Virus record (IMG/VR): IMGVR_UViG_3300025030_001854
Span: 64,001 to 128,000 of that record
Reading direction: 5' to 3' (one strand)
Origin: a virus
Length of the DNA: 64,000 bases
Shown: positions 6,125 through 50,400 of the stretch, in pieces
Layout: each line of letters starts with the position of its first letter
Numbering within the stretch: the stretch's first letter is position 1
Translations under genes and position numbers: made by a program
The notes under the pieces: model-generated
What the model was told of the DNA's origin: nothing
What the model saw: the letters and a program-made list of their open reading frames with translations, nothing else
The model's database searches: none

Positions 6125-6125
6125 A

Positions 6126-6275: not shown

Positions 6276-6519
6276 GATGAATAAGTTCTCTATATTTTTT
6301 TAAATAAACGTCCATCTCTAAATCTTCCCTATGGAGTTTTTTTAATAAAACAGACAATTGACTACGCAAAAAATCCGCGTCATCGTCTCTATATTCTTCA
6401 TCGGCTTGTGTTATTTCTAATATTTTTTTATTAATTTCCTTTTCTAAGAAATTAACGCTTTTTATTATTATTAGTGCTTCTATTAGAAGTTTTTCTTTAA
6501 GAGAAACTATATCTTCCAT
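6190..6519 (-). CDS. hypothetical helical protein
   Basis: 109-aa ORF immediately downstream of the tmRNA. Confidence 0.55.
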   Translation of the reverse strand: MEDIVSLKEKLLIEALIIIKSVNFLEKEINKKILEITQADEEYRDDDADFLRSQLSVLLKKLHREDLEMDVYLKKYRELIHHEKKDLLPSIISKKTFHIRSIPPNVSRA

Positions 6520-6559
6520 AGATTATTAGACTAATAAACATAAAAAATATTTCAATTGA

Positions 6560-6942
6560 TGGACTCGGATGGAGTTGAACCATCGTCTTTAAAAAAATTC
6601 TCATTTGATGCTACAAGTTTATTTAATTATTAGTTCTTACTAAATACATAATTAACAAGAATCTTTAGTAATATTTAAATGATTTTTCCGTTCACATTTA
6701 AAACTGAACGTTTTTCCTCGCTGTTTCGACATATAAGATAGCGAGAATCTCTTAGATATCGGTATGACCATTAGTTAGGCCATAACAGTTTCGCGTTCAA
6801 GCGTGATAACACGCATAGAGGCGAGCTTTTTCACTAATTTGCTTTTGGCAGTTAATGTTTTGTCCGTTTATTTAAGTGGCCAACGAACGTCCACTACTTG
6901 CATCTAGTAACAATTTTATTAAATCGAAACCAGTACGAGCCC
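6560..6942 (-). ncRNA. ssrA: tmRNA (SsrA), phage-encoded
   Basis: 5' GGGCTCGTACTGGTTTCGA pairs with 3' CGAGTCC-A, giving an acceptor stem with the G3:U alanine determinant. T-arm GATGG-TTCAACT-CCATC. Resume codon GCC after TAACT; tag frame 6849-6775 reads AKSKLVKKLASMRVITLERETVMA*. Length 383 nt. Confidence 0.92.
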
Positions 6943-6960
6943 AAATCAAAGAACTATCCT

Positions 6961-6989
6961 ATAATACACCCGCTTTAACTATCTGTCAA
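6961..6989 (-). promoter_or_regulatory. sigma70-type promoter for the tmRNA
   Basis: TTGACA-17 nt-TATTAT on the minus strand, 18 nt before the mature 5' end. Confidence 0.7.
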
Positions 6990-7143
6990 TGATTTTAGAT
7001 GCGATGTATTTATCCCCCAATAATTCCCTGCTCTTTTTTGCGGCCTCATCAAAGCATTTATTAACAAGATAATGGGTAAAGGTCAGTTGACCATCCCAGG
7101 GGATTATCTTCATCATAAATGGGAATTCTAACTGTTTATACAT
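6979..7143 (-). CDS. hypothetical protein
   Basis: Likely start MYKQLEFPF, 4 nt after the RNR stop. Confidence 0.45.
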   Translation of the reverse strand: MYKQLEFPFMMKIIPWDGQLTFTHYLVNKCFDEAAKKSRELLGDKYIASKIIDR

Positions 7144-7147
7144 ATTA

Positions 7148-11392: not shown

Positions 11393-11815
11393 ATGGAAAT
11401 TATGGAAAACGAAGTCATGGCTGATATTGTAAAACGTCCTATAATTAAAGATTCAGGACAACGGGAAGATTTCTCAACTGGTTCAAAAAGAGACACCCGA
11501 AACGGTAAAGGGAGATTCGATTTACTTCCTTTGTTCGCTGAGGAAGAATTGGCTAAACATTTTGAGGCTGGGGCCGTAAAGTATGGAGACAATAATTGGC
11601 TAAAGGGCCAACCTTTATCCAGGTATTTAGATTCAGCTCGTAGACATTTAAATAAAGCCGCTAGAGGCCAACGAGACGAACCTCATTTTACTGCTGCCGC
11701 TTGGAATATTATGTGTCTTATTGACACTATGAAAAGAATAGAACTTGGTCTTTTACCTGAAAGTTTAAATGACCTTTTACCAGTTTTACCAGAAGAAGTA
11801 GAAAAACTATTATGA
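11393..11815 (+). CDS. dATP/dGTP diphosphohydrolase-domain protein (DUF5664 family)
   Basis: FSTGSKRD...GKGRFDLLP, GAVKYGDNNWLKG, YLDSARRHL, EPHFTAAAWN. Confidence 0.82.
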   Translation: MEIMENEVMADIVKRPIIKDSGQREDFSTGSKRDTRNGKGRFDLLPLFAEEELAKHFEAGAVKYGDNNWLKGQPLSRYLDSARRHLNKAARGQRDEPHFTAAAWNIMCLIDTMKRIELGLLPESLNDLLPVLPEEVEKLL

Positions 11816-14716: not shown

Positions 14717-15046
14717 ATGGGACTATATTTATATCAAAATCCAAACACAAAAGAGATTATTGAAGTCGTTCAAAAAATGAATGACGAGCATACGTTTTTT
14801 AAAGATGGAATAAATTGGATAAGATTATTTACTTCTCCATGTCCAAAAATCGGAATTAATCCATTTTCTCAAGAAGACTGGAATAATCAAACTCGTAATA
14901 CCAGGGGAACTATCGGAGATTTATGGGATAAATCGGCTGAATTATCAGAAAAAAGAGCTAAAAAAAGCGGTGGTATAGACCCAATTAAACAAAAAACTGC
15001 CGAAGCTTACAGAAAGAAAACTGGTAAACCTCATCCACACGAATAA
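14717..15046 (+). CDS. FmdB-like phage protein without the Zn cysteines
   Basis: MGLYLYQNP...EV.QKMND.H....WIRLFTSP pattern. Confidence 0.5.
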   Translation: MGLYLYQNPNTKEIIEVVQKMNDEHTFFKDGINWIRLFTSPCPKIGINPFSQEDWNNQTRNTRGTIGDLWDKSAELSEKRAKKSGGIDPIKQKTAEAYRKKTGKPHPHE

Positions 15047-15885
15047 TGAAAACTCTACAGAATTGCGGAAAATTGATAGTTAAAGAATCCCCAATAGAAG
15101 GATTTGGGGTCTTTGCCACAGAAGACATTCAAAAAGGGACTATTCTTGAAGAAGTTCCTTTTGTTACCATTCCAAATTGGGCATCCTTTGGTAAAGCGTT
15201 ATATGATTTTTTATCAACATCTGAATGGATGGGTGATAAAGTAAAATATACAGAAAATTTAAGAAAAAACTTGGGTTTTAAAGACCCAGAAAAATACTAT
15301 TTTAAATGGTTTCCCCAGCATCAATTAGATAAGAGTCAAATTTCTTATACAGTTCTTCCTTTAGGATTTGGATGTATTTATAATAGTTCTAATACCCAGA
15401 ACAACGCGGGTTGGGTTATTAAAGATAGTCTTTTTATATTTAAAGCAGAAAAGGATATTCAAAAAGATGAAGAGGTAAAAACGTTTTATGGATATTTTTT
15501 AAGTGAAAATGGAACAATATTTAATTGCGATAATGTATTTAATATTGGATTAGATATCATTAACGGAACTCTTAAATTAAAAATGTTTAGATTTAGTTCT
15601 ATTGAAGTTTTTGAGGCAAGTCGGGTCCATCCAACATATATTCGTGGTCAAAAAATGTTAGCAGATTCTAAAGACGGACTTTCAATTAAAAAAATATCTT
15701 CGTCTAACTCTCCTACTGAAGACCAACAAGCAGTAGATGTTCCAGAAGTTGCTACACTACAGGATGTATATACAAGATTATCTGAATGTAAGAACCTTCC
15801 TAGAACTTTCTCTAGAATTCATATTGAATATACTAATAGAGAAGGAGAAATAGTTAAAGACGTTTTAGTATTTAAAAATTCTTGA
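15046..15885 (+). CDS. SET-domain protein (putative lysine methyltransferase)
   Basis: SPIEGFGVFATEDIQKG, GFGCIYNSS..NNA, AEKDIQKDEEVKTFYG. Confidence 0.75.
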   Translation: MKTLQNCGKLIVKESPIEGFGVFATEDIQKGTILEEVPFVTIPNWASFGKALYDFLSTSEWMGDKVKYTENLRKNLGFKDPEKYYFKWFPQHQLDKSQISYTVLPLGFGCIYNSSNTQNNAGWVIKDSLFIFKAEKDIQKDEEVKTFYGYFLSENGTIFNCDNVFNIGLDIINGTLKLKMFRFSSIEVFEASRVHPTYIRGQKMLADSKDGLSIKKISSSNSPTEDQQAVDVPEVATLQDVYTRLSECKNLPRTFSRIHIEYTNREGEIVKDVLVFKNS

Positions 15886-19314: not shown

Positions 19315-19938
19315 ATGATAACAAATTTAACAAAACAAAACCTCATAGATTTTGAGGAAGACATTGCTCAATGTTTTAATCAGAAGATGATTAAAGCTCC
19401 CATTCATCTTTATTCAAATAACGAAGAAGAAATGATTAACGTTTTTCAAGAAATTCGTCCTCAAGATTGGGTTTTTTCTGCTTGGCGAAGTCATTATCAA
19501 TGTTTATTAAAAGGAGTTCCCCCAGAACAATTAAAACAAGCTATTCTTGATGGAAAATCTATTTCTTTATCCTTTCCATCTTATAAGATATTCTGTTCTG
19601 CTATAGTTGGGGGCTCGGTTCCCATTGCTGTCGGAACAGCCCTAGCTATTAAAAGACAAGGATTAGATGAAAAAGTTTATTGTTTTGTGGGAGATATGAC
19701 TTCTGAGACAGGTATTATGTGGGAGAGCTTAAAATATAGTATTTCTTACGATTTACCTATTGTGTTTATTGTGGAAGATAATGGACTTTCTGTATGCACT
19801 GATACAAGAAAAACTTGGAATATGGAAATCCTTACTTTTGAATATCAGCTTCCAAAGTCTTCTAAAAAATACATAAGATATTATAAATACAAAAACAAAT
19901 GGCCACATGCCGGTTCTGGGTCACGAATTCAATTTTAA
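19315..19938 (+). CDS. TPP-dependent E1 alpha-like subunit (short)
   Basis: PIHL, WRSHY, SAIVGG..PIAVG.A, GDM...EDN TPP-binding motif. Confidence 0.82.
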   Translation: MITNLTKQNLIDFEEDIAQCFNQKMIKAPIHLYSNNEEEMINVFQEIRPQDWVFSAWRSHYQCLLKGVPPEQLKQAILDGKSISLSFPSYKIFCSAIVGGSVPIAVGTALAIKRQGLDEKVYCFVGDMTSETGIMWESLKYSISYDLPIVFIVEDNGLSVCTDTRKTWNMEILTFEYQLPKSSKKYIRYYKYKNKWPHAGSGSRIQF

Positions 19939-20709: not shown

Positions 20710-21240
20710 ATGAGATATTTCAACGAATTAAAAAAATCAATGGAGTTTTTAGCCGATAACCCAAAAACCATATTTTTGGGGCAGGCTGTTATTTATGCTG
20801 GAACTGCGATAAGTAACACATTAAAAGATATTCCTGAATATAAACGAATAGAATTTCCGGTAAATGAAGAATTGCAAGCTGGTGTTTCTAATGGTTTAGC
20901 TTTAGCCGGACTTATTCCTGTTAGTATATTTCCAAGATGGAATTTCCTACTTCTTGCCACAAATCAAATAGTCAATCATCTTGATAAATTTCCTATTTTT
21001 TCTGGATATAAAACCAAGGTTATTATAAGAACAAGTATTGGCTCTGAAAGACCATTACATCCTCAGTATCAACATGTTGGAGATTTTTCAGATGCCTTTA
21101 GATTAATGTGTCCTAACATTGAGGTTATTCGATTAGATGAACCAGAACAGATATTTCTATCATATAAAAAGGCTCTAGAAAGAGAAGACGGAAAATCTAC
21201 TATTTTAGTAGAATATGGAGATTTTTATAATGAAAAATAA
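20710..21240 (+). CDS. TPP-dependent E1 beta/transketolase pyrimidine-binding domain (no C-terminal domain)
   Basis: IFLGQ, EFPVNE..Q.G...GLAL.G..P, FLLLA.NQIVN, QH, ILVE. Confidence 0.82.
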   Translation: MRYFNELKKSMEFLADNPKTIFLGQAVIYAGTAISNTLKDIPEYKRIEFPVNEELQAGVSNGLALAGLIPVSIFPRWNFLLLATNQIVNHLDKFPIFSGYKTKVIIRTSIGSERPLHPQYQHVGDFSDAFRLMCPNIEVIRLDEPEQIFLSYKKALEREDGKSTILVEYGDFYNEK

Positions 21241-24099: not shown

Positions 24100-25884
24100 A
24101 TGAAAAAAATTAAAGTTTATTTTAATGAGTTTAACATTCCAACAGATAACACTGTTTATTTTCCCTATTCGTCAGGATTGTTATTAGCATATTGTCTTCA
24201 GGACGAAGATGTTAGACTTAATTTTGATTTTCAAGAATTTTTGTTTCGAAGGGAACCATTATTAAATATTTTATCTAGATATGAAAATCCAGATATAGCT
24301 TGTTTTTCATCATCAATTTGGAATCATCAGTTAAACTTGGCGGTTGCGAAAGAAATTAAAAATAGATTTCCTAATTGTCTAATTATCTTTGGTGGACCAC
24401 AAGTTCCATTAAACAGTAATTTTTATATTGAAAATCCCTTTATAGATATAGGAATATTTGGGGAGGGAGAAATTATATTCCGAGATTTATTAATTAAATA
24501 TTTAAAAAGGGAGAATAATTTTCCCCATCATATTACATTAAAGAATGATGTTACAACTAAAGAAATAGATGTTTTTCCGTCACCATATTCATTAGGACTA
24601 TTTGACCAATTAATTAAAGATAATCAAGATATTAAATTTAAAGCAATAGTAGAAACAAATCGTTCGTGTCCATTCTCTTGTGATTTTTGTTTTTGGGGAC
24701 AATCAGACTTAAATAAGAAGATTGTCTTCCATTCTCTTGAATATACAAAGCAAGAAGCCTTATGGCTTGCAAAAAATCAAGTAGAATATATCTTCTGTGC
24801 AGACGCAAATTTTGGAATGTATAAAAGAGATATTGATGTAGCCCAACTATTTTCAGATATTAAATTAGAATATGGATATCCAGATAAGTTTCGCGTTTGT
24901 TATGGGAAAAATACAACAGAAAATATATTTAATACAGCTTTAATATTATCTAAAGCTAATTTAGCTAAAACAGTAACGCTAGCGAAACAATCTAACGATA
25001 AATCTGTATTAGCCAATATTCATCGTTCGAATATTAATACTAAAACATTTAAACAATTACAAATAAAATATACAGAAGCGGGAATCCCTACTTATACCGA
25101 ATTAATATTAGGTCTTCCAGGAGAAACATATTCTTCATTTTTGTCTGGACTAGAAGAAACCCTAGAATCTGTTATTAATAATCAGGTATTTATTTATCAT
25201 TGTCAAGTTCTTCCAAATACAGCGATGGCAGAAAAAGATTATATTTCAAAATATGGTTTAAAAACTGTTAAAATCCCACTAGCGGAAGTTCATGGTAGTG
25301 TTCGAGATAATTCTATCGTTCAAGAATTTGAGGAAATAGTTATTGGAACTAATTCAATGTCCCAAGAAGAATGGAAAAAGTGTGCCGTTATTTCTTGGTT
25401 AGCTCAATCTTTATATGGGCTTAAAGCTGCCGAAGAAATTATTAATTTTCTTATTAAAGAATATAAAATCAAATTTACAGATTATTTTGAATTTATCTCT
25501 AAATGCGATATGGATGAAGTAAAATTATTATGGAGAGTAGCAAACGACATTACAGATGGGGAAAGGAGATGTCAACATGATGCTAGATTTGGGTCAATAT
25601 ATTATGACCCAGAAGAATTTGTTTTTTTATTGTTATGCTTAAATCCTAATAAATTCTTTCAAAAATTATTTCAAATAACTGTGGGATTTTTGATGTCTAA
25701 AGGTATAGACATAAAAAGTAAGTTTGCGGAGTTATTGACAGTTTTTTCTGTTCAACAAGATAATCTCCCTTCTCCTTACGATTATAGTTCTACTAAAGAG
25801 TTTGCTACCAAAGTAGTCTTACATGGAAGAAAAAGTAACTCAACTAAAAAACAAAGAAATCCAATAGGATTTCAATTAATATGA
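24100..25884 (+). CDS. cobalamin-binding radical SAM protein
   Basis: N-terminal B12-binding domain (IFGGP, GEGE), ETNRSCPFSCDFC, DANFG, ELILGLPGET. Confidence 0.88.
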   Translation: MKKIKVYFNEFNIPTDNTVYFPYSSGLLLAYCLQDEDVRLNFDFQEFLFRREPLLNILSRYENPDIACFSSSIWNHQLNLAVAKEIKNRFPNCLIIFGGPQVPLNSNFYIENPFIDIGIFGEGEIIFRDLLIKYLKRENNFPHHITLKNDVTTKEIDVFPSPYSLGLFDQLIKDNQDIKFKAIVETNRSCPFSCDFCFWGQSDLNKKIVFHSLEYTKQEALWLAKNQVEYIFCADANFGMYKRDIDVAQLFSDIKLEYGYPDKFRVCYGKNTTENIFNTALILSKANLAKTVTLAKQSNDKSVLANIHRSNINTKTFKQLQIKYTEAGIPTYTELILGLPGETYSSFLSGLEETLESVINNQVFIYHCQVLPNTAMAEKDYISKYGLKTVKIPLAEVHGSVRDNSIVQEFEEIVIGTNSMSQEEWKKCAVISWLAQSLYGLKAAEEIINFLIKEYKIKFTDYFEFISKCDMDEVKLLWRVANDITDGERRCQHDARFGSIYYDPEEFVFLLLCLNPNKFFQKLFQITVGFLMSKGIDIKSKFAELLTVFSVQQDNLPSPYDYSSTKEFATKVVLHGRKSNSTKKQRNPIGFQLI

Positions 25885-26717
25885 AAAGTCCAGACGTATC
25901 TATTATTTTACCGTCTATTCGCCCAGAAAATCTGATTAAATTTTATGAATCAGCTCAAAATGCTTGTCAGAGATATTCTTTTGAAATTATAATTCCTGGT
26001 CCATATCTAATTCCAGAAGAATTAATGAAAAAAGGAAATGTTGTATTTATTCATACTTACGCTAATCCAACTATTTGTTTTCAAATGGCGGCTCTTTTAG
26101 CTAGGGGGGAATTTATTTATAATACAACAGATGATGGATTATTACAACCCAATGTTATTGATATTGCTGTTGACCTTCATAGAGAAGCATTGACATTCAA
26201 AGATATGATAAATATGAGGTATGATGAAGGAGTATTAGACCCGATAACTCTTTTACCTTTAAAAGAAAATCATGAACATTTCTCTCCATATTATTGGATT
26301 GCCCATTCTCATGCTGATTTAAGATTACCGGGAATTCCCGTTAATTATAAATTATGTATGCATTTCTTTATTAAGAAGAACTATTTTCTTTGGCTTGGTG
26401 GATTTGATTGTAATTATGAATATAGCAATCATGCTTTACACGATTTAGCTTTTAGAGTTCAATCAGATGGAGGACAAATTGTAAGTCTTCCTGTGGTTGC
26501 TTTTTATTGTTCTCATCTTCCTGGCCAGCAGGGCGACCATGGACCAGTAAATGATGCTCAATTAGGACCAGACATTACAAGATTTAATTCTATCTACGGA
26601 AACTCAACCCTAGATATAAAACAAAGAATTAATTTAAATTATGACGATTGGAAGAATTTTCCTAATATATGGGAAAGAAGATTTGATAAAAATAATTTGT
26701 TAGTTAATAAAATATGA
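25881..26717 (+). CDS. GT-A (GT2-like) glycosyltransferase
   Basis: VSIILP, TTDD, LGGFD..Y, DLAFR.Q. Confidence 0.78.
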   Translation: MKSPDVSIILPSIRPENLIKFYESAQNACQRYSFEIIIPGPYLIPEELMKKGNVVFIHTYANPTICFQMAALLARGEFIYNTTDDGLLQPNVIDIAVDLHREALTFKDMINMRYDEGVLDPITLLPLKENHEHFSPYYWIAHSHADLRLPGIPVNYKLCMHFFIKKNYFLWLGGFDCNYEYSNHALHDLAFRVQSDGGQIVSLPVVAFYCSHLPGQQGDHGPVNDAQLGPDITRFNSIYGNSTLDIKQRINLNYDDWKNFPNIWERRFDKNNLLVNKI

Positions 26718-28222
26718 AAAACGATTTAGATATCCTACTTATTCATCCGAATTCTGCTAAAAGAGTCTATCAAGACCTTAGTAATAATTTTTCAGCTATA
26801 GAACCCCCAATTTGGGCGTTAATGATTGCTTCTTATCTTATAAATAAAGGGTGGAATGTAGAAATACTCGACTGCGAAGCTTTAAGGTTAAATCCAAAAG
26901 AAGTATATACAATCGTTAAAAATAAATCTCCAAAAGTAATTGGTATGGTTGTTTATGGGCAACAGCCATCAGCCTCGACACAAAATATGACAGGGGCAAT
27001 CGACATTATGCATAAATTGGCTGATTTAGATATTACTCGTATCTATATTGGTCCGCACCCCTCTTCGTTACCGATAAGAACTATAGAAGACGACCCAGGA
27101 GCATTGGTTTGTCAGGGGGAAGGTCCAATTACATTGGATATATTATTAAAACAAAAAAATCACAAAGATATTAGCGATAGGAAAAAAGTTCCTGGATTGT
27201 GGTATTTTAATTATATTTCTGGAAAGATAGAGGGAAATTGCTCTGCTCCTTTATTACGAGACTTAGATAATGATATTCCGAATTTGCCTCTTGACCTTCT
27301 TCCTTTAGAACAGTATAGAACTTCTAATTGGCATAGTTGGACTAATGAAAATAAAACTCAACCATTTTTATCTTTATATACCAGTTTGGGATGTCCTTTT
27401 CAGTGTTCTTTTTGTATGATTAATTCTCCATTTAATAATGGGGATAATAAAAATAATACTTTCCGCACTTGGTCGCCCGCTCATACATTAAGGATTTTAA
27501 GGGGTTTTACTGATAAGGGGGTTACTAATGTTAAAATAGCTGATGAAATGTTTGTCTTAAAACCACCCCATTTTCTTGAAATTTGTAAGGGTGTTATTGA
27601 TAGCGGGATGAAATTTAATTTTTGGGCTTACGCAAGAATAGACACCGTAAGAGAACAATATTTAGATATTCTTAAAAAAGCTGGAGTAAATTGGCTAGCA
27701 CTAGGTATTGAATCTGGTAATATTAAAGTAAGGCAAGAAGTCATTAAGGGTAAATTTCAAGAATTAAATATTCATGATATTGTTTCTAAAATTCAAAATC
27801 ATGGAATTTGTTCTATGAATAATTTTATATTTGGGTTACCAACAGACACCATTGAAACAATGCAATCAACGTTAGATTTAGCTATGAACTTAAATGGCGA
27901 ATATGCTAATATGTATTGTGCTATGGGTTATCCTGGAAGTCAATTACACAGAGATTTTTCTCAACATAATCCATCTGTTTTACCAGAAAACAATGGCGTC
28001 GGATGGATAGGATATTCTCAACACGCTTACGAAACGTTTAATCTTCCGACAGAAGTATTAAAAAATCATGAAATTCTTAAATTTCGTGACGAAGCGGTAA
28101 TTAAATATTTTAGTAACCCATCTTATTTGGAAAAAATGACATTAAAATTTGGACCTAATTTTAAAACAGAAATACAAAACATGTTAAATATTAGATTAAA
28201 AAGAAAAATATTAGGAGACTAA
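26714..28222 (+). CDS. cobalamin-binding radical SAM protein (class B methyltransferase-like)
   Basis: GPHPS..P, GEG, TSLGCPFQCSFC, ADEMF, ARID, GIESG, FIFGLP.DT. Confidence 0.9.
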   Translation: MKNDLDILLIHPNSAKRVYQDLSNNFSAIEPPIWALMIASYLINKGWNVEILDCEALRLNPKEVYTIVKNKSPKVIGMVVYGQQPSASTQNMTGAIDIMHKLADLDITRIYIGPHPSSLPIRTIEDDPGALVCQGEGPITLDILLKQKNHKDISDRKKVPGLWYFNYISGKIEGNCSAPLLRDLDNDIPNLPLDLLPLEQYRTSNWHSWTNENKTQPFLSLYTSLGCPFQCSFCMINSPFNNGDNKNNTFRTWSPAHTLRILRGFTDKGVTNVKIADEMFVLKPPHFLEICKGVIDSGMKFNFWAYARIDTVREQYLDILKKAGVNWLALGIESGNIKVRQEVIKGKFQELNIHDIVSKIQNHGICSMNNFIFGLPTDTIETMQSTLDLAMNLNGEYANMYCAMGYPGSQLHRDFSQHNPSVLPENNGVGWIGYSQHAYETFNLPTEVLKNHEILKFRDEAVIKYFSNPSYLEKMTLKFGPNFKTEIQNMLNIRLKRKILGD

Positions 28223-28224: not shown

Positions 28225-28803
28225 ATGTCAGAACTTATCAAATTACATTTGGGGTGTTACCATCGGAAAATACATGGATATATTAACATAGATATCCGTC
28301 CAGAATGCTCTCCAGACCTAGTAGAAGACTGCTTCCTATTATCTTCGTTTAAAAATAATAGTGTTGATGTTATTTATACTTGTCATATGCTTGAACATTG
28401 CAAAAGAGACGAAGTTCTTCCAATATTAATCCGCTGGAATGAGATATTAAAACCAGGTGGTATTTTAAGGATTTCTGTCCCAGATTTTGAGGCTTTGTGT
28501 GAATATTATATTCAAACAAGAGATTTAGAAGCCATTACAAATTTAATGTTTGGTTCCCAAAAACATGCTTATGATTTTCATTATATTGGTTTTAATGAAA
28601 AGTATTTAACTAGTTTATTAAAAGGATTAGATTTCGTAAATATCCATCGTTATGATTGGAGGGAAACAGAACATTTTTATATTGATGATTACTCTCAATG
28701 TTATTTGCCAAGTATTGAATATAAATCTAGAAGACTAACTGATGAAATAAAAGGAAAACTAGTTAGTCTAAATATTGAAGCGGTAAAAGCTCTATCTATA
28801 TGA
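28225..28803 (+). CDS. class I SAM-dependent methyltransferase
   Basis: KLHLGC, G.INID, VDVIY..HMLEH, LKPGG.LRISVPD. Confidence 0.85.
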   Translation: MSELIKLHLGCYHRKIHGYINIDIRPECSPDLVEDCFLLSSFKNNSVDVIYTCHMLEHCKRDEVLPILIRWNEILKPGGILRISVPDFEALCEYYIQTRDLEAITNLMFGSQKHAYDFHYIGFNEKYLTSLLKGLDFVNIHRYDWRETEHFYIDDYSQCYLPSIEYKSRRLTDEIKGKLVSLNIEAVKALSI

Positions 28804-29579
28804 CAAAACCAGAAATTTCAATCTTAATGCCAGCTATTCGTCCGCAGAACTGGACAAAAGTATATGAATCTATTTTGTCTTCAACAAGGCGTTCTTTTGA
28901 ATTAGTTATTGTGGGACCACACCAATTACCAGAAAATCTTTTACAATATAAAAATATTAAATATGTTAGAGATTTCGGTTCTCCAGTAAGAGCATCTGCT
29001 ATAGGAAGTCTTTTGTGTGAAGGAACATTTATATATCCCACTCATGCAGATGATTGTTTTTTAATTCAAGATTCTTTGGATAATAATATTGATATCCTTT
29101 CTAAATATAACGATGAACATGTAGTTGTTTGTAAGTATTCAGAAAGCGAAAATTTATCCAGAGAAAATGATTATCAAAACGATGATTATTATAAAATTGT
29201 TAATGCTTATCCAGTAAATCCAATGGTAATTCCTAGTCATTGGTTAATTTTTAATTCTGTTATTTGGTATAGAACAACTTTTGATAGAATTGGGGGATTT
29301 GATTGTCATTTTGAAACCTGCCCAATGGCTCATGCAGATTTAGCTATAAGAAGTCAACACGTTGGTATTAAAGCTATTTTATCGTCTTTTCCATTATTAA
29401 AATGTGGCCATATGCCTGGAACCAGTGGCGACCATGCACCCATACATTTTACCCAAATATTGAAAGATGACCCAAAATTTAGATTAAAATATAGCGAACC
29501 ACTTGACGATTTAGTTAGTTGTATTGATAGATTAAATTGGAAAAAATATCCCAATGTTTGGAAAGAAAGATTTAATTAA
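28800..29579 (+). CDS. GT-A (GT2-like) glycosyltransferase, paralog of 25881-26717
   Basis: ISILMPAIRP, HADD, IGGFD..FE, DLAIR.Q, H.PG..GDH.P. Confidence 0.78.
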   Translation: MTKPEISILMPAIRPQNWTKVYESILSSTRRSFELVIVGPHQLPENLLQYKNIKYVRDFGSPVRASAIGSLLCEGTFIYPTHADDCFLIQDSLDNNIDILSKYNDEHVVVCKYSESENLSRENDYQNDDYYKIVNAYPVNPMVIPSHWLIFNSVIWYRTTFDRIGGFDCHFETCPMAHADLAIRSQHVGIKAILSSFPLLKCGHMPGTSGDHAPIHFTQILKDDPKFRLKYSEPLDDLVSCIDRLNWKKYPNVWKERFN

Positions 29580-29583
29580 AATT

Positions 29584-31941
29584 ATGGAAATCCTTATTTT
29601 AGCAGACTCTAGAGCTATGTGGCCGAGAGAATATAGTTGGCCTAATGTATTACAACAGATGCTTGGTAAAGGATATAATATCACGTCTTATATTAGCGGA
29701 ATAGATAAATGGCTTGCATCTATTAATATGATGGAAGAATTTCTTTTGGACAAATTCCCAGATAAAGTATTCGATATTATCATTATTCAAGCGGGATGGC
29801 ATGAGGGAGGACCATGCTTCTGGCCCGAAGAAACGTGGAAAGAGATTATAAATACCAAAACCAGAGAATTTAACCAATCTTCTCTTATTGATAAAATAGA
29901 AAATAATGGTAAATCTAAATTTTTATATAAAGACGAAAAAGAAGAAAAATCTGTTTTTAAAACATTTAGGTCAAGAGGAAGAAATGTTATTTTTATTAAT
30001 ATGCATTCTGTTCGGCCACCAAACGATTTAAATAAAGAGTATGGTCTTGGAATGACTCATCAATATAAACAACTAGAAGCTAATTTTAGATTTTCTCCTG
30101 TTGATTGCGATTCTTTTTCTTTACCACAAGACAATGAATGGATATCTAATTGTTGTTTACCTGATAGGTTGCATTATATGTTTCATGGAATTAATTATAT
30201 TGCTACTTATTTAGCCAGATATATTCAACGAGCACACAAAATATTACCCAACCTATTAGCAGATTCATCTAAACACAAATCTCTTTTTGAAGAATCCAAA
30301 AGAATAGGTTCATTTATTGCAAATAATACACAGGAACGAGATAAAGTAATTTTGTGCGATGATTTGACTTCCAATTTAATTGCTGCTTTTTGGGGATGTA
30401 TTCTTTATAATCGTATTCCATTGATTATACAACATCCTTCAGTTAAAGTTCATTCTTCAGAATTTCATAAAAAGTTACAAAGAATAAAAGAAATAGTAAA
30501 TCCATCATTTTGTTTTTGTTCGGAAAAATATTTTTCGTCGCTTAAGACATTTTTTAACGCGGCATTTACTATAAATAATCCTCACAATGATAGATATGAA
30601 TTAGATTTGATTGATTATTCTTCTGATGATGTCGCCTTTTTGCAATTATCATCAGGAACCACTGGTGACGTTAAAATATTAGAAGTAACACATAAGCAAG
30701 CAATAGAGAATGTCGAAGAATATGCTCTTATTTCTAACATCAATCAGTATAGTTCTATTGTTTCTTGGCTACCATTATATCACGATATGGGATTAATTAC
30801 TTCGGTTATTATTCCTGTTGTTATGGATTGTTCAGTTGCATATATAGATACATTTTTATGGCTTTCTCGCCCAGTGTTAATATTAGAAATGATTGAGAAA
30901 TATAAAGCTACTCATGTTTGGTGGCCGAATTTTGTTTTTTCGTTTTTGGCTAATCAAAAAGACGATATATCTAAAATAGATTTATCTTCTTTACAATTTT
31001 TAATTAGTTGTTCTGAGCTTTCATTCAATAAAGATATTAATAAATTTATTGAAAAATATAAAAATAATAAACTTAATTGTCAGATAGCTAATTGTTATGC
31101 CCTAGCGGAAAATGTATTTGCCGTCAGTCAATCTAATTCTCTATCTTCAATAACACTAGCTAATGGTTTTTCATTAACAAGTTGCGGTAGAGCTATGCAG
31201 GGGATTTCTGTTTTAATTTTAAATGATAACGAAGAAGATATTACTGGGGAACCAGTTGTTGGTAAAATTTATATTAAAAGTAATACTATTACAACTAAGA
31301 CTCTAAATAAATATGGATATTATGATACTGGAGATTTAGGATTAATATATAATGGAGAAATTTTTGTAGCTGGAAGAAATAAAGACAATTTTGTTTCTTT
31401 TGGAATTAATATTTATCCAGAATTAGTTGAAAAAAGTCTTGATGGTATCAAAGGAATTACCCCAGGAAGAATAGCTTGTATTGGAATCCAAGATAATGAA
31501 CTAGGAACATGTAGAACATTTATTATTGCTGAAACAAACGACTTATCTCTTGCTGACGTTATCTCTAAAGAAATATCTTTAACTGTTAAAAATTTATACG
31601 AAGTCTCCCCTACTGTATTTATAGAAAATCCATCGTTTTTAATCAAAACTTCCAGTGGTAAAATAAGCCGTTTTCGTTCTGGGGAAAAACTAATTAAAAA
31701 AATAGGAATATTAAATATCATTAATAAATTCTTGGCTGAAAAAAATAAACCGAGTATTAGAATAAGCGACAGATTATATACCTCTGGTTTATTGGATAGT
31801 TTGGAACTGTTTGAATTAATTCTATTCTTAGAAAAATCAGGGGTATCTTTAAATAAAGAATTATTAACCAAAGATAGTTTTCGTATTGATTTAGACAAAA
31901 TTGATAATATTGATGGAATTATAGCAGTATTACCAATATAA
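29584..31941 (+). CDS. fusion protein: SGNH-like domain + acyl-AMP ligase (FAAL-like) + acyl carrier protein
   Basis: N-terminal ILADSR/IQAGWHE/DRLH; adenylation motifs QLSSGTTG..K, SWLPLYHDMGL, YALAEN, YDTGDLG, GRNKD, KTSSGKISR; C-terminal GLLDSL phosphopantetheine site. Confidence 0.85.
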   Translation: MEILILADSRAMWPREYSWPNVLQQMLGKGYNITSYISGIDKWLASINMMEEFLLDKFPDKVFDIIIIQAGWHEGGPCFWPEETWKEIINTKTREFNQSSLIDKIENNGKSKFLYKDEKEEKSVFKTFRSRGRNVIFINMHSVRPPNDLNKEYGLGMTHQYKQLEANFRFSPVDCDSFSLPQDNEWISNCCLPDRLHYMFHGINYIATYLARYIQRAHKILPNLLADSSKHKSLFEESKRIGSFIANNTQERDKVILCDDLTSNLIAAFWGCILYNRIPLIIQHPSVKVHSSEFHKKLQRIKEIVNPSFCFCSEKYFSSLKTFFNAAFTINNPHNDRYELDLIDYSSDDVAFLQLSSGTTGDVKILEVTHKQAIENVEEYALISNINQYSSIVSWLPLYHDMGLITSVIIPVVMDCSVAYIDTFLWLSRPVLILEMIEKYKATHVWWPNFVFSFLANQKDDISKIDLSSLQFLISCSELSFNKDINKFIEKYKNNKLNCQIANCYALAENVFAVSQSNSLSSITLANGFSLTSCGRAMQGISVLILNDNEEDITGEPVVGKIYIKSNTITTKTLNKYGYYDTGDLGLIYNGEIFVAGRNKDNFVSFGINIYPELVEKSLDGIKGITPGRIACIGIQDNELGTCRTFIIAETNDLSLADVISKEISLTVKNLYEVSPTVFIENPSFLIKTSSGKISRFRSGEKLIKKIGILNIINKFLAEKNKPSIRISDRLYTSGLLDSLELFELILFLEKSGVSLNKELLTKDSFRIDLDKIDNIDGIIAVLPI

Positions 31942-31953
31942 AAGATATGAAGT

Positions 31954-32595
31954 ATGAATGTTTTGATTTTATCTGATTCTCGTGGAACTGTCCCACAAGG
32001 AAACTCATACATAAATAAATTAATACGTCTATTACCGAATTTTTCTTTTACTTATTTTAATATTGGTTCTCAATTTCATATTAATACCCTAAATAAACTA
32101 GAAGAGTTTGTTATTGATTTAAATAAGAAATTTGATATATTAATAATTCAAGTTGGAATACATGATAATGGAGTTTTGCCTTGGCCTAAAACGATATGGG
32201 AATATTATTTAAATACCAAATATAGAAGATTTGAAAAAGCTTTTTTGTATCAACGTCCACCGTTCATGAATACAAATTTGTTTTTTTATCAAAACGAACA
32301 AGAAGAAAAAGATTGTTTTAAAACGTTTAGGAAATATTGCAAAAAAATAGTTTTTTTAAGTCCTCATGGTATATATTTATCAGTTTTCGAAAATAAAGTG
32401 ATTCATTTTGGAGAGGACTATAGACAACTAAACCTAAATAATATTAATAGAATATCTAAACTGGCCGACGAAACAATTTTTCTGCCACAAGACGAAAAAT
32501 TTAAATTAAAATATACTATGGATGCAGGAATTCACTATAATGACGCTGGTCATAATTTTATCGTGAGAAAAATTAAAAAAGCATTAAAATCATGA
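31954..32595 (+). CDS. SGNH/GDSL-like hydrolase or acyltransferase
   Basis: ILSDSR, IQVGIHD, DAGIHYNDAGH; resembles the N-terminal domain of the upstream fusion. Confidence 0.7.
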   Translation: MNVLILSDSRGTVPQGNSYINKLIRLLPNFSFTYFNIGSQFHINTLNKLEEFVIDLNKKFDILIIQVGIHDNGVLPWPKTIWEYYLNTKYRRFEKAFLYQRPPFMNTNLFFYQNEQEEKDCFKTFRKYCKKIVFLSPHGIYLSVFENKVIHFGEDYRQLNLNNINRISKLADETIFLPQDEKFKLKYTMDAGIHYNDAGHNFIVRKIKKALKS

Positions 32596-44851: not shown

Positions 44852-47415
44852 ATGAATTTATAAACGATTTTGAATCAATGGAGGTTCCCATTCTTGGGGT
44901 TCGACTTCCAGAATTCGCTATTGAAGAGAAATATTTAAAAGCAGTTGGTTTAAAATTAGGAACATCTAATTATGATTTTCTTCGAGCTTTATGTATTGAG
45001 GGGTTTAAGAAACTAAAAATATCTAAATCTAACCCAAATTATCAAATTTATGGAGATAGAGTTAAACACGAACTTGGAATTCTTTCCGAATTAGGATTTG
45101 TTGATTACCTATTATTAGTATGGGATGTCATTAATTATTGTAAAGAAAATGATATTCCGACTGGTTTGGGTCGAGGAAGCGCGGCAGGAAGTCTTGTCCT
45201 TTATCTTATTGGTGTCACTAAAATAGACCCTATTAAATACGGACTCTATTTTGAAAGATTCGTGTCTAAAATTAGAGCTAAAAAACAAATCTTTGACGGA
45301 ATTACCTATTTAGACGGTTCGTTAATGTGCGATGTGGATTTGGATATCTGCTACTATAATCGTCCAAAAGTATTAGCTTATTTGGATAAGAAATTTGCCG
45401 GAAAAACATCTAAGATTCTTACATTTAATACTTTATCAGCTAAATTGGTTATTAAAGAGGTCGGTAAGATTCTAGGTGGAGTTCCAGAAGAAGAAATGAC
45501 TCATGTTACAAGTATGATTCCTAAACAGCATGGAATCTTGGAGGATTTAGATGTTGCCTATGAAAAAGTGGGAGAATTTAAAGAATGGTGTGATACTCAT
45601 AGTCTTGTTTATTCTGTAGCTTTAAAATTAAAAGACCTTATTAAAAATAAGGGGGTTCATCCATCAGGAATTATGATTACTCATGGAAACCTACTAGATT
45701 CTTGCCCCACAGAACTTTCTTCAGAAAAGGAAATTGTTTCTTCCTATGACATGAACTGGGTGTCATTATTTTCTGTTAAGTTAGATGCTTTGGGTTTACG
45801 TGGAGTGTCGGTCGTAGATGATATATGTAAACAATTAGGAATTAAGGTCGAAGACATAGATTTAAATGACCCAATTATATATCAGAGCCTACAAAGTTTG
45901 AAATACCCACAAGGTCTATTCCAATTAGAGGCTGACCTATGCTTTAAAACAACCCAAAAAGTTAAACCAAAGAATATGCAAGAATTAAGTGCTATTCTTG
46001 CTGTCGCCCGTCCTGGTGCGATGCAATTTATTGACAAGCTCGCTCTGTATACAACAACTGGAACTATTGACAGTATTCATCCATTTTTTGAAGATATTTT
46101 AATAGAAACTGGTGGGGTTGCCCTATATCAGGAGCAGTTAATGAAAATGGCTAATAAAATTGGTTTCACCTTGGATGAAGCCGAAATTTTAAGGAGAATT
46201 GTAGGAAAAAAGAAAGTTGACGAAGTTAAAAAATGGAAAAGTAAAATTGAAGAAAAAGTAAAAGAGCAAGGACTTGATAAAGAAATAGGAGAAATCTTAT
46301 GGAAGATTTTGGAAGATTCGGCAAGTTATTCATTCAACAAGAGCCATAGTGTAAGTTATGCTGCATTGGCTGCTTTAACAGTCTACTTAAAATTCAAATA
46401 TCCAACAAATTTCTTCTTGTCTCTTCTTTCTATGAGTCAACATGAACCTGACCCCATAGGAGAAATAGCTAAAATCCATAAAGAAATGCAATATTTTAAT
46501 ATTAAATTGCTTTCTCCAAGCTTATCTTATTCCCAAATTAAATTTACTATTGAAGGAAAAGATATTCGTTTCGGTCTTTCTTCTATTAAGGGCATTGCCG
46601 AAAAAACAATTGAAAAACTTAATAATTTTAAACGAGAACATGCCAATAAATTTGAATTATTTGAATCTGCGAAAGAAGCCGGTCTAACAATCGGAGTCCT
46701 CTCCGCTCTTATTCAGGCTGGAACACTGTCTAAATTTGGCGATAAAAGAGCATATTTAGTCTATGAGGCTCAATTATGGAACCTTCTTAAACCGAAAGAA
46801 AAACAAAACGCTATTTCTTTAGCTTTAAAGTATGATTATAAATTAATTCCCATTGTTAAAGCGTTAAATCAGGTTCATAAAGATGAAAAAGGACGACCTT
46901 TAATCAAGGATTCAAGAATGGCAACTATAAAAAAGGGTTCAGAAAGATATAAAAATATTTTTGAACTAAATGATGTATGTGCTGATTTCGCTAACTGGTG
47001 GTATGAAAAACGATTATTGGGTTATGTTTCCGACAAGCACTTAATTGATATATTCTTATCCAAAAAAAGTTCATTATCCCCCATTAATGAAATATTAGAA
47101 TTGCCAGAGGATTCTTACGTTGATTTTATTGGTCATATTGATGAAAATCCTACGCTTGGAACTTCTAGGACAGCTAGAAAAAGCAAATATGCCAAATATC
47201 AAATCAGTGACGAAACAGGGACCGTTAAAGTCATGATTTTTAATGATTCTCTTGAAGAATGTAAAACTTTAAATGGAGTTCTTCCTAAACAAGAAGATAT
47301 CGTAATTGTAAGCGGAAGGAAAAAGGGGGATGATACTATTTTCGCCCGCTTAATTGCTGTTCAACAAAATGTAATTTATACAAAACTTTCAGAATTAAAA
47401 GACCCAACAGTTTAA
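44842..47415 (+). CDS. dnaE: DNA polymerase III alpha catalytic part (lacks the PHP domain)
   Basis: GF.DY.L.V.D, GRGSAAGSLV.Y, FERF, DVDLD, HPSG, KLD.LGL, G.FQ.E, YQEQ.M, FNKSHS..Y, IRFGL..IKG, C-terminal OB fold. Confidence 0.92.
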   Translation: MQVNEFINDFESMEVPILGVRLPEFAIEEKYLKAVGLKLGTSNYDFLRALCIEGFKKLKISKSNPNYQIYGDRVKHELGILSELGFVDYLLLVWDVINYCKENDIPTGLGRGSAAGSLVLYLIGVTKIDPIKYGLYFERFVSKIRAKKQIFDGITYLDGSLMCDVDLDICYYNRPKVLAYLDKKFAGKTSKILTFNTLSAKLVIKEVGKILGGVPEEEMTHVTSMIPKQHGILEDLDVAYEKVGEFKEWCDTHSLVYSVALKLKDLIKNKGVHPSGIMITHGNLLDSCPTELSSEKEIVSSYDMNWVSLFSVKLDALGLRGVSVVDDICKQLGIKVEDIDLNDPIIYQSLQSLKYPQGLFQLEADLCFKTTQKVKPKNMQELSAILAVARPGAMQFIDKLALYTTTGTIDSIHPFFEDILIETGGVALYQEQLMKMANKIGFTLDEAEILRRIVGKKKVDEVKKWKSKIEEKVKEQGLDKEIGEILWKILEDSASYSFNKSHSVSYAALAALTVYLKFKYPTNFFLSLLSMSQHEPDPIGEIAKIHKEMQYFNIKLLSPSLSYSQIKFTIEGKDIRFGLSSIKGIAEKTIEKLNNFKREHANKFELFESAKEAGLTIGVLSALIQAGTLSKFGDKRAYLVYEAQLWNLLKPKEKQNAISLALKYDYKLIPIVKALNQVHKDEKGRPLIKDSRMATIKKGSERYKNIFELNDVCADFANWWYEKRLLGYVSDKHLIDIFLSKKSSLSPINEILELPEDSYVDFIGHIDENPTLGTSRTARKSKYAKYQISDETGTVKVMIFNDSLEECKTLNGVLPKQEDIVIVSGRKKGDDTIFARLIAVQQNVIYTKLSELKDPTV

Positions 47416-50400
47416 ATCAAATTTTTTGATACTAAACATATAGGTAATCCTTCTGTCGCGAAAGCACTATTTAATAAATCTTCTTGAAGGGTTACCCTTG
47501 TTCCTCTTCCTGAAGTTATACATTTTCCACTATTTATAATAGCATCAGTTGAAACAGAATCATACATCTGAAACTGATTAGATATTCCATATTGTTTAGA
47601 TATATCTGGATTTTTTAAACCATTAGGTAACGGTTGTCCCCTAGATGCGGAAAAAATCATAGCACTATTAGTAAAGGTTAATCCGTCGTCAGGGGGCATT
47701 ATTTCTATGGTTTCTCCAGGATTTAAAATCTCAATTGAACTAAATGCTGGCCATAAAAGTTTGTTGTAATTTTCTGGATATGTCATAAACATTCCACTAT
47801 ATTCTTGGTAATCTGTAATTCTAAGTCCTGGTTTTCTTTGTTTCATGATTGATGGCGCTTCTAATACTGGACGATTAGTAGTAGAAGTTGGTTCAATAAA
47901 AAATTTGGGGTTTAATCTTGATAAAACTGGGGACATATATACTGGGTCATATAGTGGTTTGAGTTCGTCTCCCGAAGAAATATTTTCTAATATAATTCCC
48001 TCGGTGAATATAGCTGTATCGGCTTGACCTAAATACCCCATTTCTCCAGAGACGACACAATAACCAGAAGGATTAATAATATGTAAATCTTCATATGGAA
48101 TAGCTTTATATTCTATAGAAACATTTTTAAAAGTAAATGAAATTCTTACTCCCTCTCTATATCCGCTAATATCCATTCCCTGTCGTCTTTGTCTACATCT
48201 TTTAGACCAATATTCTTCTACGGTATCTGAAGAATCATATATAAAATTATCAAAAGAGTCTATTCTTCCATAGCCTGTAAACCGACTTTCGTCGTCTGGT
48301 TGAGGATAAAGTTTACCTGTTCTAGAAAAAGTAACAAAAGTATGAGAACCCTTGAGTCCCTCAAAACCATTAGAATGTGGAATAACAAATTTTAATTCTA
48401 GTCCATTATTAGGAAAATTATGGATATTTAACCAATCACGTTCTCCTTTATGGAAATTAAGATGATAGTTTTCTCCATTTAGGGTTTTTCTTGCTTTAAG
48501 TGTTAATTTGCCCGAAGGAACTCCCTTTTTTGTTTCTGCCAAATGTCCATCTTCAATATATCCATCTCCACCCACCGTTGGATTGGAATAAACATTTATA
48601 TGTAATGGATAACCAGCCTTAATAACTGAAACAATAGAGTAATTAGCATATCTTCCACCTTCTTCTAATTTTAGTCCACTAATAATATACTGACTTTCTT
48701 TCGTAGGGTCGTCAGTGCAATTAGGATTATCAGCATACATCTGTGAAACTTTTCTATTATTTACATATAGGTCAGTAAATCCTTGCACACTATTAGGATA
48801 CATTAAACCGATTTCTACATCTCTATCAAACGGACCAATAGTTATACCTGAAGAATCATACCATTCGCCGATAGATGAGGTTTTATTAATAATTGGGAAT
48901 AAAGTTGATAAATCAAATTCTAAATACATTCCACTTCTAAAAGTAGTAATGAGATTCCCAGTATATCCTATTTTTGCATACTGAATAACAGAGCTGCTAG
49001 TAAACGGTAGAGGTAACGAACCAGTATATCCCAGTGGATTATATCTTAATGAAGAAGCCCAAATAACTGTCCCTGTTGGAGAACTATTAAATAATAAAAT
49101 TCCATCATCATCTTCTGGAGTTCTAAAACACTGATAATCATAACATGGATAATCATCACTTCTATCTCGACAATAAATACTATAAGTTTGAGCTGAAAAG
49201 CCCAACCAAGCATCACCAATTATTTCGCGAGAATGATATCCACCCTGCCCAGAGGCAGAATATAAACCATAATTTAATAACTCTTCTTGTCGTCCCCCAA
49301 TATATTCAAAAAATAATGGGTCTTTTCCTGTCTCTATATCAAATCGTTGGTCATTATTATCTGTAATTTGACAGGTCTGAGAGTAATAATCAGCAAATGT
49401 AGAATTAATCCCAGGAGTCATTCCCAACCTACCAGAATTAATATTAAAAATAGGAGGAGTATAAATTAATTCTACTTCATCAGTAAACGCATCGTAAGCA
49501 TGAAATAGTCCCAAAGATAATGGCCGCAAATCATATGTATAAATATAATGTTCTGAATCTAAACCTGTAAACCATTTATGAGTCCAAACATCATATCCTG
49601 TAAGATAATATCCGTTTTCAAAATAGGTATTTATATCTGCATCTAAATTAAAGGTAGTATTATTTTTTCCAGAAGGAACAAATCCTTTATAAAGTGGAGC
49701 CCATTGATTATTAACCAAATTAATTCCTAGTCGTTTTTGAAATGGTTGGTCAACTTTTTTATTATTAATATCTAGAGATGACCATCCGACATCATTTGTT
49801 TCGAATATTTTGGTCATGATAGGGGCATTATTTGGATATGCTAATCCCCCTAATCCATCTGGACGTTTTACTGGAATATATTTAATATTAGATGAGACTG
49901 TTCCATCAGAATTGATATGATATACCCCAAAAATTTCTTTTACCACTTCTTCTCTTACCTCTAAATTAAATTTTACTTTATAAGGAAATCCTCTAAGTTT
50001 TCCTACATATAAAGCATTAGCTCCTAATGCTTGTGGATATAAAAACTTACGATTTTCCGTATTAAATGGACCACTAGTAAATCTTGGAAGATAGTTGTCT
50101 GATGACTGAGTGGCCATGATTCTAGGAAATTCGTTTTCCATATCTTCTGGCAATGGAGAAAATGAAGACCATCCAGTATATTTAATATTACTTGTTTCTG
50201 GGAAGCTATTGTCCAAATAATAATATTCTCTTTGAATACCTGATTCGTCAAATGCTATTTTTTTCACCAATCCAACTGTTTGCCCATTAACTAAATATCC
50301 ACTAATAAATGTAATTGTCTTAACGTCGTCACCAATAATATCTTCTTGATAGCTATCAATAATATTATTTAATTCAATAATTTGTCCACCACCACTTAAT

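Follow-up and report, generated by a model that had tools for sequence, protein, structure and literature searches.

On balance, the gene at 29584-31941 of the DNA analysed here seems to encode a self-contained module that would activate an acyl group, carry it and transfer it in the cytoplasm, as part of a glycan-tailoring gene cluster of a phage. The DNA, called the window below, is the whole stretch of 64,000 nucleotides that was analysed, bases 64001-128000 of IMG/VR virus record IMGVR_UViG_3300025030_001854 (136,838 b; CheckV completeness 71). The gene product combines three folds with conserved residues in a single chain: an SGNH-fold domain, an ANL adenylation (ligase) domain and a carrier-protein-like domain. 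A free paralog of the SGNH domain is encoded next to it, its parts occur both fused and separate in other viruses, it lies among glycan genes, and the cellular relatives of its ligase have a genomic context like that of the Dlt D-alanylation system. A preliminary description of the stretch had proposed the fusion of SGNH, adenylation and carrier domains in one open reading frame (ORF), and this is confirmed by Pfam for the ligase and by structure models for both ends. The features of the module are:

29584-31941, + strand: three-domain gene, 785 aa plus stop, uninterrupted ORF
29584-30240, + strand: SGNH-fold domain, residues 1-219 (model and Foldseek)
29608-29610, + strand: codon of Ser9, putative nucleophile, in the DSR motif of block I (family conservation)
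30163-30174, + strand: Asp194-x-x-His197 of block V (family conservation)
30274-31698, + strand: ANL adenylation domain, residues ~231-705 (PF00501), similar to fatty acyl-AMP ligases (FAALs) as well as McyG
31696-31938, + strand: carrier-protein-like domain, residues 705-785 (model, Foldseek and profile)
31798-31800, + strand: codon of Ser739 in GLLDSL, putative phosphopantetheine attachment site (alignment A4 and model)
31954-32595, + strand: free SGNH paralog, 213 aa (BLASTP and A3 profile)

Three domains in one chain

The N-terminal domain gave a confident AlphaFold2 model (pLDDT 93.6, pTM 0.88) with the 36-row alignment A3 as input, and the model has a three-layer alpha/beta/alpha fold. 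Foldseek returned 72 PDB matches at E ≤ 0.001; TesA (top match, 1.8e-5) and other GDSL esterases hold ranks 1-19, an MsAcT-like acyltransferase is among the leaders, and PatB appears at rank 46. In a second look (VIA), Foldseek's 1000 best chains were realigned to the model and 256 reached Z ≥ 8, among them EstL5 (Z 16.9, rmsd 3.1, 180 residues aligned), TesA 4jgg (Z 15.7), the C-domain of OatA (Z 15.7, rmsd 2.5, 147 aligned) and PatB (Z 15.5, rmsd 3.3, 178 aligned). The earlier assignment of the N-terminus to the SGNH fold is borne out by the model and by both sets of matches.

A profile built on the two SGNH copies, run over 1.84 billion representative proteins, found 56 at E ≤ 0.001, of which 30 reach E ≤ 1e-10 and 9 reach E ≤ 1e-30. 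The 56 representatives comprise 17 long fusions (at least 590 aa), 33 free proteins (180-260 aa) and 6 of other lengths. Counting at each column only the representatives aligned there, Asp8 is present in 52/52, Ser9 in 49/52 and Arg10 in 52/52, and Ser9 comes directly after the strand formed by residues 2-7 of the model. Asp194 (49/52) and His197 (52/52) are located in the loop ahead of the C-terminal helix. Gly71 is found in 48/53; position 73, which was matched to block III by motif pattern and without superposition, is His in 38/53 and Asn in 8/53. The N-domain is an enzyme of the SGNH type: its Ser-Asp-His centre is conserved, and the Ser is followed by an unusual invariant Arg. Its family is rare and has no Pfam model, neither the fused nor the free copy matching an SGNH or GDSL Pfam family at E ≤ 10. 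In both copies the nucleophile Ser falls at residue 9, too close to the N-terminus for a signal peptide to precede it; judged by their sequences, both copies lack one and are predicted to be cytoplasmic.

The central domain matches the Pfam AMP-binding family PF00501 (E 1.9e-29; 103.1 bits vs a cut-off of 29.9). In NCBIfam, the best match is PRK07768, a long-chain-fatty-acid-CoA ligase (1e-58), followed by the fatty acyl-AMP ligase PRK09192 (1.7e-53), and no curated cut-off is reached among the best 25 of 76 matches; the FAAL models score well below theirs (PRK09192, 181.8 vs 600 bits; FadD32, 98.3 vs 975; PRK05850, 123.6 vs 775). The best PDB sequence matches are the McyG didomain 4r0m, which joins an adenylation domain to a peptidyl carrier protein (PCP; 3.5e-38), the E. 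coli FAAL 3pbk (2.1e-28) and the Legionella FAAL 3kxw (5.1e-27), with FadD23 and FadD32 also among them. Fatty-acyl and aryl ligases predominate, and the D-alanine ligase DltA is absent from the best 60 of 63 PDB sequence matches. In ANL enzymes, SSGTTG forms a P-loop-like element, YxxAE and TGD are core motifs, GRxKD marks the hinge and a C-terminal Lys is catalytic; the corresponding SSGTTG, YHDMGL, YALAEN, YYDTGD, GRNKD and KTSSGK show little or no variation in 32 homologues (alignment A2).

The ligase differs from the E. coli FAAL in one stretch. The alignment to 3pbk is interrupted between residues 355 and 385 of that chain, a stretch over which the query moves only from 295 to 304, or ~21 residues fewer; the alignment to McyG is continuous over the same stretch. 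We take the break to be the site of the FAAL-specific insertion. An insertion of this kind in the N-terminal domain is used to define FAALs, according to passages of PMC8460268 and PMC12820801. As far as the alignments tell, the ligase domain probably lacks this insertion. The label "FAAL-like" given to the domain in the preliminary description is therefore apt as a statement of similarity to FAALs, but the FAAL models stay below their cut-offs and the domain is shorter than the E. coli enzyme where the alignment breaks.

The C-terminal domain was modelled at pLDDT 89.1 as a four-helix carrier fold (helices at domain residues 2-15, 35-47, 54-57 and 66-77). Ser739, residue 35 of the domain, lies in the first turn of helix 2 and is invariant in 8/8 homologous tails (A4). 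Every row listed by Foldseek for this model is an acyl carrier protein (ACP), a PCP or DltC (E 0.038-0.27, TM 0.47-0.63): DltC 4bph is at the top (0.038), and ACPs, PltL, PigG, AntF and PCPs of nonribosomal peptide synthetases (NRPSs) make up the others. A PDB search with the single sequence gave 7 rows at chance level, including PCP 2my5 (0.52) and CcbZ (0.87). With the A4 profile, ACPs are matched at 0.002-0.03 overall, the mitochondrial ones at 0.002-0.007; CcbZ scores 0.011 and DltC 0.09. Polyubiquitin chains come top in that search, which is an artefact, their whole-chain E-value summing repeats of 8.2 bits each. A link to recognised carriers comes from the ACP of a bacterial locus described below (L030), which Pfam identifies as a PP-binding protein (PF00550, 3.8e-6). 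A jackhmmer search seeded with this ACP, over a small database of locus ORFs, reached the carrier domain of the window at 8.9e-13 and that of a related virus (L003) at 2.8e-12. The reading of the GLLDSL region as a carrier is thus supported by the model, the Foldseek rows, the invariant Ser and the jackhmmer link.

The free SGNH gene begins 13 nt past the three-domain gene. Its product aligns with the first 239 residues of the fusion at 73/221 identities (33%; BLASTP E 2e-33), which verifies the paralogy proposed for the next gene, and the A3 profile matches it at E 1.1e-57; NCBIfam has no SGNH/GDSL model for it. It keeps DSR (residues 8-10), GIHD (68-71) and the block V His. A predicted complex of the free paralog with the carrier domain scored 0.01 vs a mark of 0.32, in a run without controls, and carries no weight on binding either way.

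The reading frame itself appears sound. An upstream ATG at 29554 is an alternative start (29554-31941, + strand, 795 aa); 29584 was taken as the start because most A2 homologues begin at that Met and because it lies 4 nt past the upstream stop (29579). All the motifs quoted earlier are there: DSR at 8-10, D194-x-x-H197, SWLPLYHDMGL at ~394-404, KTSSGK at 688-693 and GLLDSL at 735-740. The same 785-aa protein was found, identical, on 12 contigs, the longest of 175,250 b. Together with 6 further three-domain clusters, this rules out an assembly chimera or frameshift artefact.

Viral loci, the sugar cluster and cellular relatives

A word-indexed protein search gave 2959 matches at E ≤ 0.001 among 8000 scored. 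From 166 proteins gathered, 34 are SGNH-ligase fusions, and 7 of these 34 also have the carrier domain. In a metagenome scan from which 80 loci were kept, the N-domain occurs only in L095 and L096, both short contigs. Three viral loci are informative as to gene order, namely the window, L003 and L004.

The viral contig L003 (45.8 kb; 40% identity) encodes a 711-aa SGNH-ligase protein, followed by an overlapping 83-aa ORF that is 38% identical to the carrier domain of the window (E 7e-11) and has SSGLLESIE, the same motif as GLLDSL. A 238-aa ORF after this stand-alone carrier was considered as an SGNH paralog and rejected, having no relation to SGNH. In L004, a 39.9-kb viral contig, the SGNH protein has a free gene of its own (203 aa; A3 profile, 9.4e-46) that abuts a gene for a 477-aa ligase; a 72-aa ORF and then a methyltransferase gene follow. 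The 72-aa ORF has TSMG in register with the carrier Ser, a weak match (hhalign E 0.0069, probability 5.6%). The occurrence of the same parts either fused or adjacent in different loci is a classical sign of a functional unit.

In the window, the module lies in a run of sugar genes:

16636-36807, + strand: co-directional sugar/glycan biosynthesis cluster around the module (Pfam, NCBIfam)

The genes of this run abut or overlap by a few bases, at a GC content of 0.29-0.33, and the module gene is spaced 4-13 nt from its neighbours. A recently acquired island was ruled out, since GC shows no break. The cluster encodes a family 2 glycosyltransferase (GT2), an RmlC-like epimerase, epimerases/dehydratases of the short-chain dehydrogenase/reductase (SDR) type, two GT1-like proteins, a methyltransferase and a DegT aminotransferase, whose gene is two genes downstream of the module, as well as a PfkB kinase, a GDP-mannose 4,6-dehydratase, a split pair resembling thiamine pyrophosphate (TPP)-dependent E1 and two B12-radical-SAM proteins. 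The neighbours in L003 are similar (SDRs, B12-radical-SAM, split TPP E1-like pair, GT1-like, RmlC-like, methyltransferase, DegT and PfkB), and a GT2-like gene is directly upstream of its SGNH-ligase gene. A glycan-cluster setting is therefore found in 2/3 informative viral loci, the window and L003.

Some members of the cluster deserve mention in their own right. The genes at 25881-26717 and 28800-29579 are paralogs (31% identity, E 1e-40) without a Pfam family, and the latter is directly upstream of the module; the gene in that position in L003 has a weak GT2 match (0.0051). The TPP-dependent E1-like alpha/beta pair is encoded at 19315-19938 and 20710-21240 (PF00676, 8.7e-17; PF02779, 6.4e-8). 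The B12-binding radical-SAM genes are at 24100-25884 and 26714-28222, one of them belonging to the KedN5 family (6.9e-62). The set of TPP E1-like pair and B12-radical-SAM genes recurs in L003 (914-3640). It suggests branched-chain or C-methylated deoxysugars, which are known from antibiotic pathways. A scan for sigma-70 promoters over 16-36 kb gave 80 sites, fewer than the 114.9 in shuffled sequence, and so carries no information.

The ligase also has relatives in cells. A scan of one genome per species from 185,579 prokaryotic species gave at least 600 pattern matches, and the best 80 loci (L015-L094) were analysed. They match the ligase part only, at 25-33% identity, none starting before query residue 173, and the SGNH family of the module is absent from all 80 by the A3 profile. 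Within their flanks, an MBOAT gene is present in 36, a small carrier in 42 and a different GDSL protein in 16. Among the 45 loci with full 8-kb flanks the corresponding numbers are 28, 29 and 11, with 12/45 lacking both MBOAT and carrier. In L030, MBOAT, GDSL protein, PP-binding carrier and ligase are encoded in a row (4993-9584), and cassettes of MBOAT, GDSL, carrier and FAAL-like ligase genes are spread over Chloroflexota, Acidobacteriota, Alphaproteobacteria and further groups. The cellular ligases nearest to that of the phage (27-31% identity) thus belong to Dlt-like four-gene cassettes. This context, together with the separate adjacent parts in L003 and L004, supports the Dlt-like logic put forward in the preliminary description. 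A literature search for cassettes of MBOAT and acyl-AMP ligase turned up only classical Dlt work, and the bacterial cassette is apparently both widespread and undescribed.

Proposed reactions and alternative explanations

We infer the following chemical steps, including the acyl group and the acceptor. The central ANL domain would adenylate a carboxylic acid; judged by the relatives of the ligase, an acid of the fatty, hydroxy or aryl type is more likely than D-alanine. The same domain would then thioesterify the acid onto the 4'-phosphopantetheine of Ser739, an arm that would be fitted by a phosphopantetheinyl transferase (PPTase), either from the host or from the 29% of the genome that is missing. 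The SGNH domain, using Ser9, Asp194 and His197, would accept the acyl group from the carrier, forming an acyl-serine intermediate, and hand it on to a hydroxyl, or possibly to an amino group that the DegT enzyme had made, on a sugar intermediate or a finished glycan. The free paralog would draw on that carrier-bound acyl group too. It would be a second transferase serving a different position or acceptor, or else a relay partner in the manner of AlgJ and AlgX, two SGNH-type proteins that work together on alginate. As the module would be wholly cytoplasmic, the membrane MBOAT of Dlt-type systems would be dispensable. On a further reading, to which we give somewhat less than even odds, the SGNH family, with its own ligase and carrier, places a non-acetyl acyl group on an exotic phage glycan, and the module is a soluble, MBOAT-free derivative of the bacterial cassette.

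Several observations weigh against this scheme, and rival explanations can be built on some of them. The fold does not tell transferases from hydrolases, esterases, TesA, OatA and PatB all scoring Z 14-17. The preliminary suggestion of acyl transfer by the SGNH domain agrees with the likeness of the fold to OatA and PatB, but esterases and TesA score equally. The putative block III of the window reads G71-W-H73-E, with His and not the canonical Asn, and the N-terminal domain searched alone has no Pfam family at E ≤ 10 (two chance-level rows). The free paralog has Ala in the Asp194 column of A3, the sole Ala in the family tally there; nor is the paralog conserved, the ORF after the carrier in L003 being unrelated. 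It is conceivable, although we think it rather unlikely, that the SGNH domains are TesA-type thioesterases that release or proofread the carrier-bound acyl group; the module would in that case yield an acid, free or processed further, or clear mis-loaded carriers, with another enzyme making any transfer to the glycan. TesA acts on acyl-ACP, and TesA and GDSL esterases occupy Foldseek ranks 1-19 and are level with transferases in VIA. Activation followed by hydrolysis would, however, be a futile cycle unless the tethered acyl group were modified first, and Pfam and NCBIfam assign no gene of the cluster to modification of a carrier-bound substrate. Moreover, no acyltransferase family besides SGNH turned up in the cluster, and in cells the ligase and carrier are paired with transferase-type partners, MBOAT and GDSL.

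The acceptor is a separate question. The earlier proposal of a phage glycan as acceptor agrees with the sugar-gene neighbourhood in the window and in L003, but not with L004, whose split module lies among genes for an exonuclease, an M23 peptidase, an amidase and a glucosaminidase, the 17.4 kb seen there containing no sugar genes; linkage to glycan genes is hence not universal. On a rival view, the position in a sugar cluster is circumstantial and the acceptor is a lipid, as for Aas, a protein or a polymer of the host envelope; we give this view only a small probability. The cell-wall hydrolase genes near the L004 module are in keeping with such an acceptor, as is the match of the NCBIfam Aas model PRK08633 to the ligase part (1.6e-16), and lysophospholipid acyltransferases fused to FAAL-like domains are mentioned in passages of PMC8460268. 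On the other hand, the window and L003, two independent loci at 40% identity, both embed the gene in tightly packed sugar clusters directly behind a GT2-like gene, and the acyltransferase part is SGNH and not PlsC-type, the Aas model scoring 59.2 vs 1221 bits.

Several points speak against a functional carrier. The carrier domain searched alone has no Pfam match at E ≤ 10, PF00550 included, and a six-frame search of the record with PF00550 gave nothing at E ≤ 10, while the family was detected in 12/14 control genomes. The Foldseek E-values are weak, none being ≤ 0.001. The absence of a PPTase, which had been noted for the window, extends to the whole 136.8-kb record, 71% complete, in which PF01648 is not found at E ≤ 1; in the control for this search the family was detected in 10/14 genomes. 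The apparent absence of the extra stretch of the E. coli FAAL means that coenzyme A (CoA) may replace the carrier, and 27/34 SGNH-ligase fusions have no carrier domain. On such grounds the C-terminal domain might be a docking element or a remnant, the ligase yielding acyl-CoA or passing acyl-adenylate directly to the SGNH domain. We consider this very improbable: Ser is invariant in 8/8 tails and opens helix 2, its usual place in carrier proteins; the L003 fusion, which lacks the domain, has it encoded as the very next ORF; the domain is reached by jackhmmer from an ACP that is itself positive for PF00550; and 42/80 cellular relatives have a small carrier beside the ligase. We continue to favour an activate-carry-transfer module acting on a phage glycan.

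The phage record and known acylation systems

The source record is clearly a large tailed-phage genome. Outside the window it encodes rIIA/rIIB, a clamp loader, an RNA ligase, thymidylate synthase and a virion structural protein, and inside it ribonucleotide reductase, a DnaB-like helicase, a primase, a UvsX-like recombinase, sigma factors and a DnaE-like polymerase. No close GenBank phage was found, identity of the DnaE-like polymerase being at most 28%. Two glycosyltransferase-like genes are present at 57518-60655, 20 kb downstream of the sugar cluster (a weak GT1 match, 2.2e-5, and a GT9 heptosyltransferase-like match, 1.1e-5), and a SET-domain protein (6.1e-9) is encoded just upstream of the cluster, at 15046-15885. 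The ORF at 11393-11815 corresponds to the N-terminal domain of a dATP/dGTP diphosphohydrolase (PF18909, 8.9e-23); an adenylosuccinate-synthetase-like gene of the PurZ type was looked for in the 136.8-kb record and none was found. Two adjacent giant ORFs of 1583 and 1580 aa (47412-52163 and 52166-56908, both - strand) are not mutual paralogs, and neither belongs to a Pfam or PHROG family. At 1-942 (- strand), continuing in L178 at 5539-6942, the phage encodes a Ro60-like protein with a TROVE domain (4.4e-20; phrog_850 RNA-binding protein, 5e-45). Genes of the HNH/endonuclease VII type are numerous at 40-60 kb of the record (L177), in L176 and in L178, with at least 8 ORFs having PHROG HNH/endonuclease matches.

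Among known systems, the closest in logic is Dlt, in which D-alanine is handled by the ligase DltA, the carrier DltC, the MBOAT protein DltB and the SGNH-like DltD. In both cases an ANL ligase loads a small carrier and, by the predicted logic, an SGNH-fold protein helps to pass the acyl group to a glycopolymer. In both cases, too, ligase, dedicated carrier and SGNH partner are encoded together (in one chain in the window, as neighbours in L003 and L004), and the top structural match of the carrier model is DltC 4bph. Unlike Dlt, the module is phage-encoded and would be a single cytoplasmic chain without a signal peptide, and its record contains no MBOAT (none for PF03062 at E ≤ 1 in 136.8 kb, 71% complete). 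Its ligase is FAAL/McyG-like rather than DltA-like, and its SGNH domain is of a different family. The module would therefore work like Dlt without being a member of the Dlt system.

The order of adenylation domain and carrier resembles that of loading didomains of the FAAL-ACP or adenylation-PCP kind, for which McyG 4r0m, 3pbk and 3kxw are the points of comparison. In the module, however, the offloading partner would be an N-terminal SGNH domain and not a ketosynthase or condensation domain, and no polyketide synthase (PKS) or NRPS genes are near it. Typical bacterial FAALs are, according to the relevant passage of PMC8460268, always in a PKS or PKS/NRPS genomic context.

The SGNH fold with its Ser/His(/Asp) centre is shared with the glycan O-acyltransferases PatB and OatA (C-domain), which act on peptidoglycan, and AlgJ/AlgX provide a precedent for two cooperating SGNH-type proteins. 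PatB, OatA, AlgJ, AlgX, OafA and OafB differ from the module in being extracytoplasmic and in receiving acetyl from a membrane partner (MBOAT or AT3); OafA and OafB are AT3-SGNH fusions of prophages. In the module the donor would be the acyl-carrier within the chain, and the location cytoplasmic. A cytoplasmic SGNH-type enzyme that places a medium-chain acyl group on a sugar is known in mycobacteria (OctT, diglucosylglycerate octanoyltransferase); it uses acyl-CoA, has neither ligase nor carrier attached, and is taken as a precedent only. An Atlas search by language-model features placed a cluster of this name among the nearest (score 0.94), which is a lead and not an alignment. Finally, Aas also unites an acyltransferase and an ANL ligase working with ACP in one chain, but its transferase is PlsC-type and membrane-bound, with a lipid acceptor.

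The phage-encoded glycan acylation known to us is the work of AT3-type acetyltransferases using acetyl-CoA, and we know of no earlier virus with its own activate-carry-transfer line for glycan decoration. Literature searches yielded no phage system combining a carrier protein with SGNH glycan acylation. Blastn with the two module genes against 50,697 phage records gave no match, tblastn with either SGNH copy none at E ≤ 1e-3, and tblastn with the whole protein matches in 13 records, to the ligase part only (at most 58% of the query, 20-26% identity). The statement in the preliminary description that such an arrangement was not known from phages accordingly holds for the literature searched and for these records. 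Passages of the FAAL surveys PMC8460268 and PMC12820801 describe other N-terminal fusions and no SGNH fusion. As two of the three parts have no model, the architecture of the module is invisible to domain databases.

The carrier-dependent acylation of surface polymers by Dlt is classic, but its late steps are debated because they occur across a membrane. A natural soluble version in a single chain would ease the study of how an SGNH protein takes an acyl group from a carrier. On the further, less likely reading given above, phages would have taken up phosphopantetheine-carrier chemistry to tailor glycans, and the fused phage enzyme could serve as a tractable model, in a single protein, for the whole class of MBOAT/GDSL/ACP/FAAL-like cassettes. 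The finding defines an SGNH family that lacks a database model, and it points to the many bacterial MBOAT/GDSL/ACP/ligase cassettes to which the phage module may be related.

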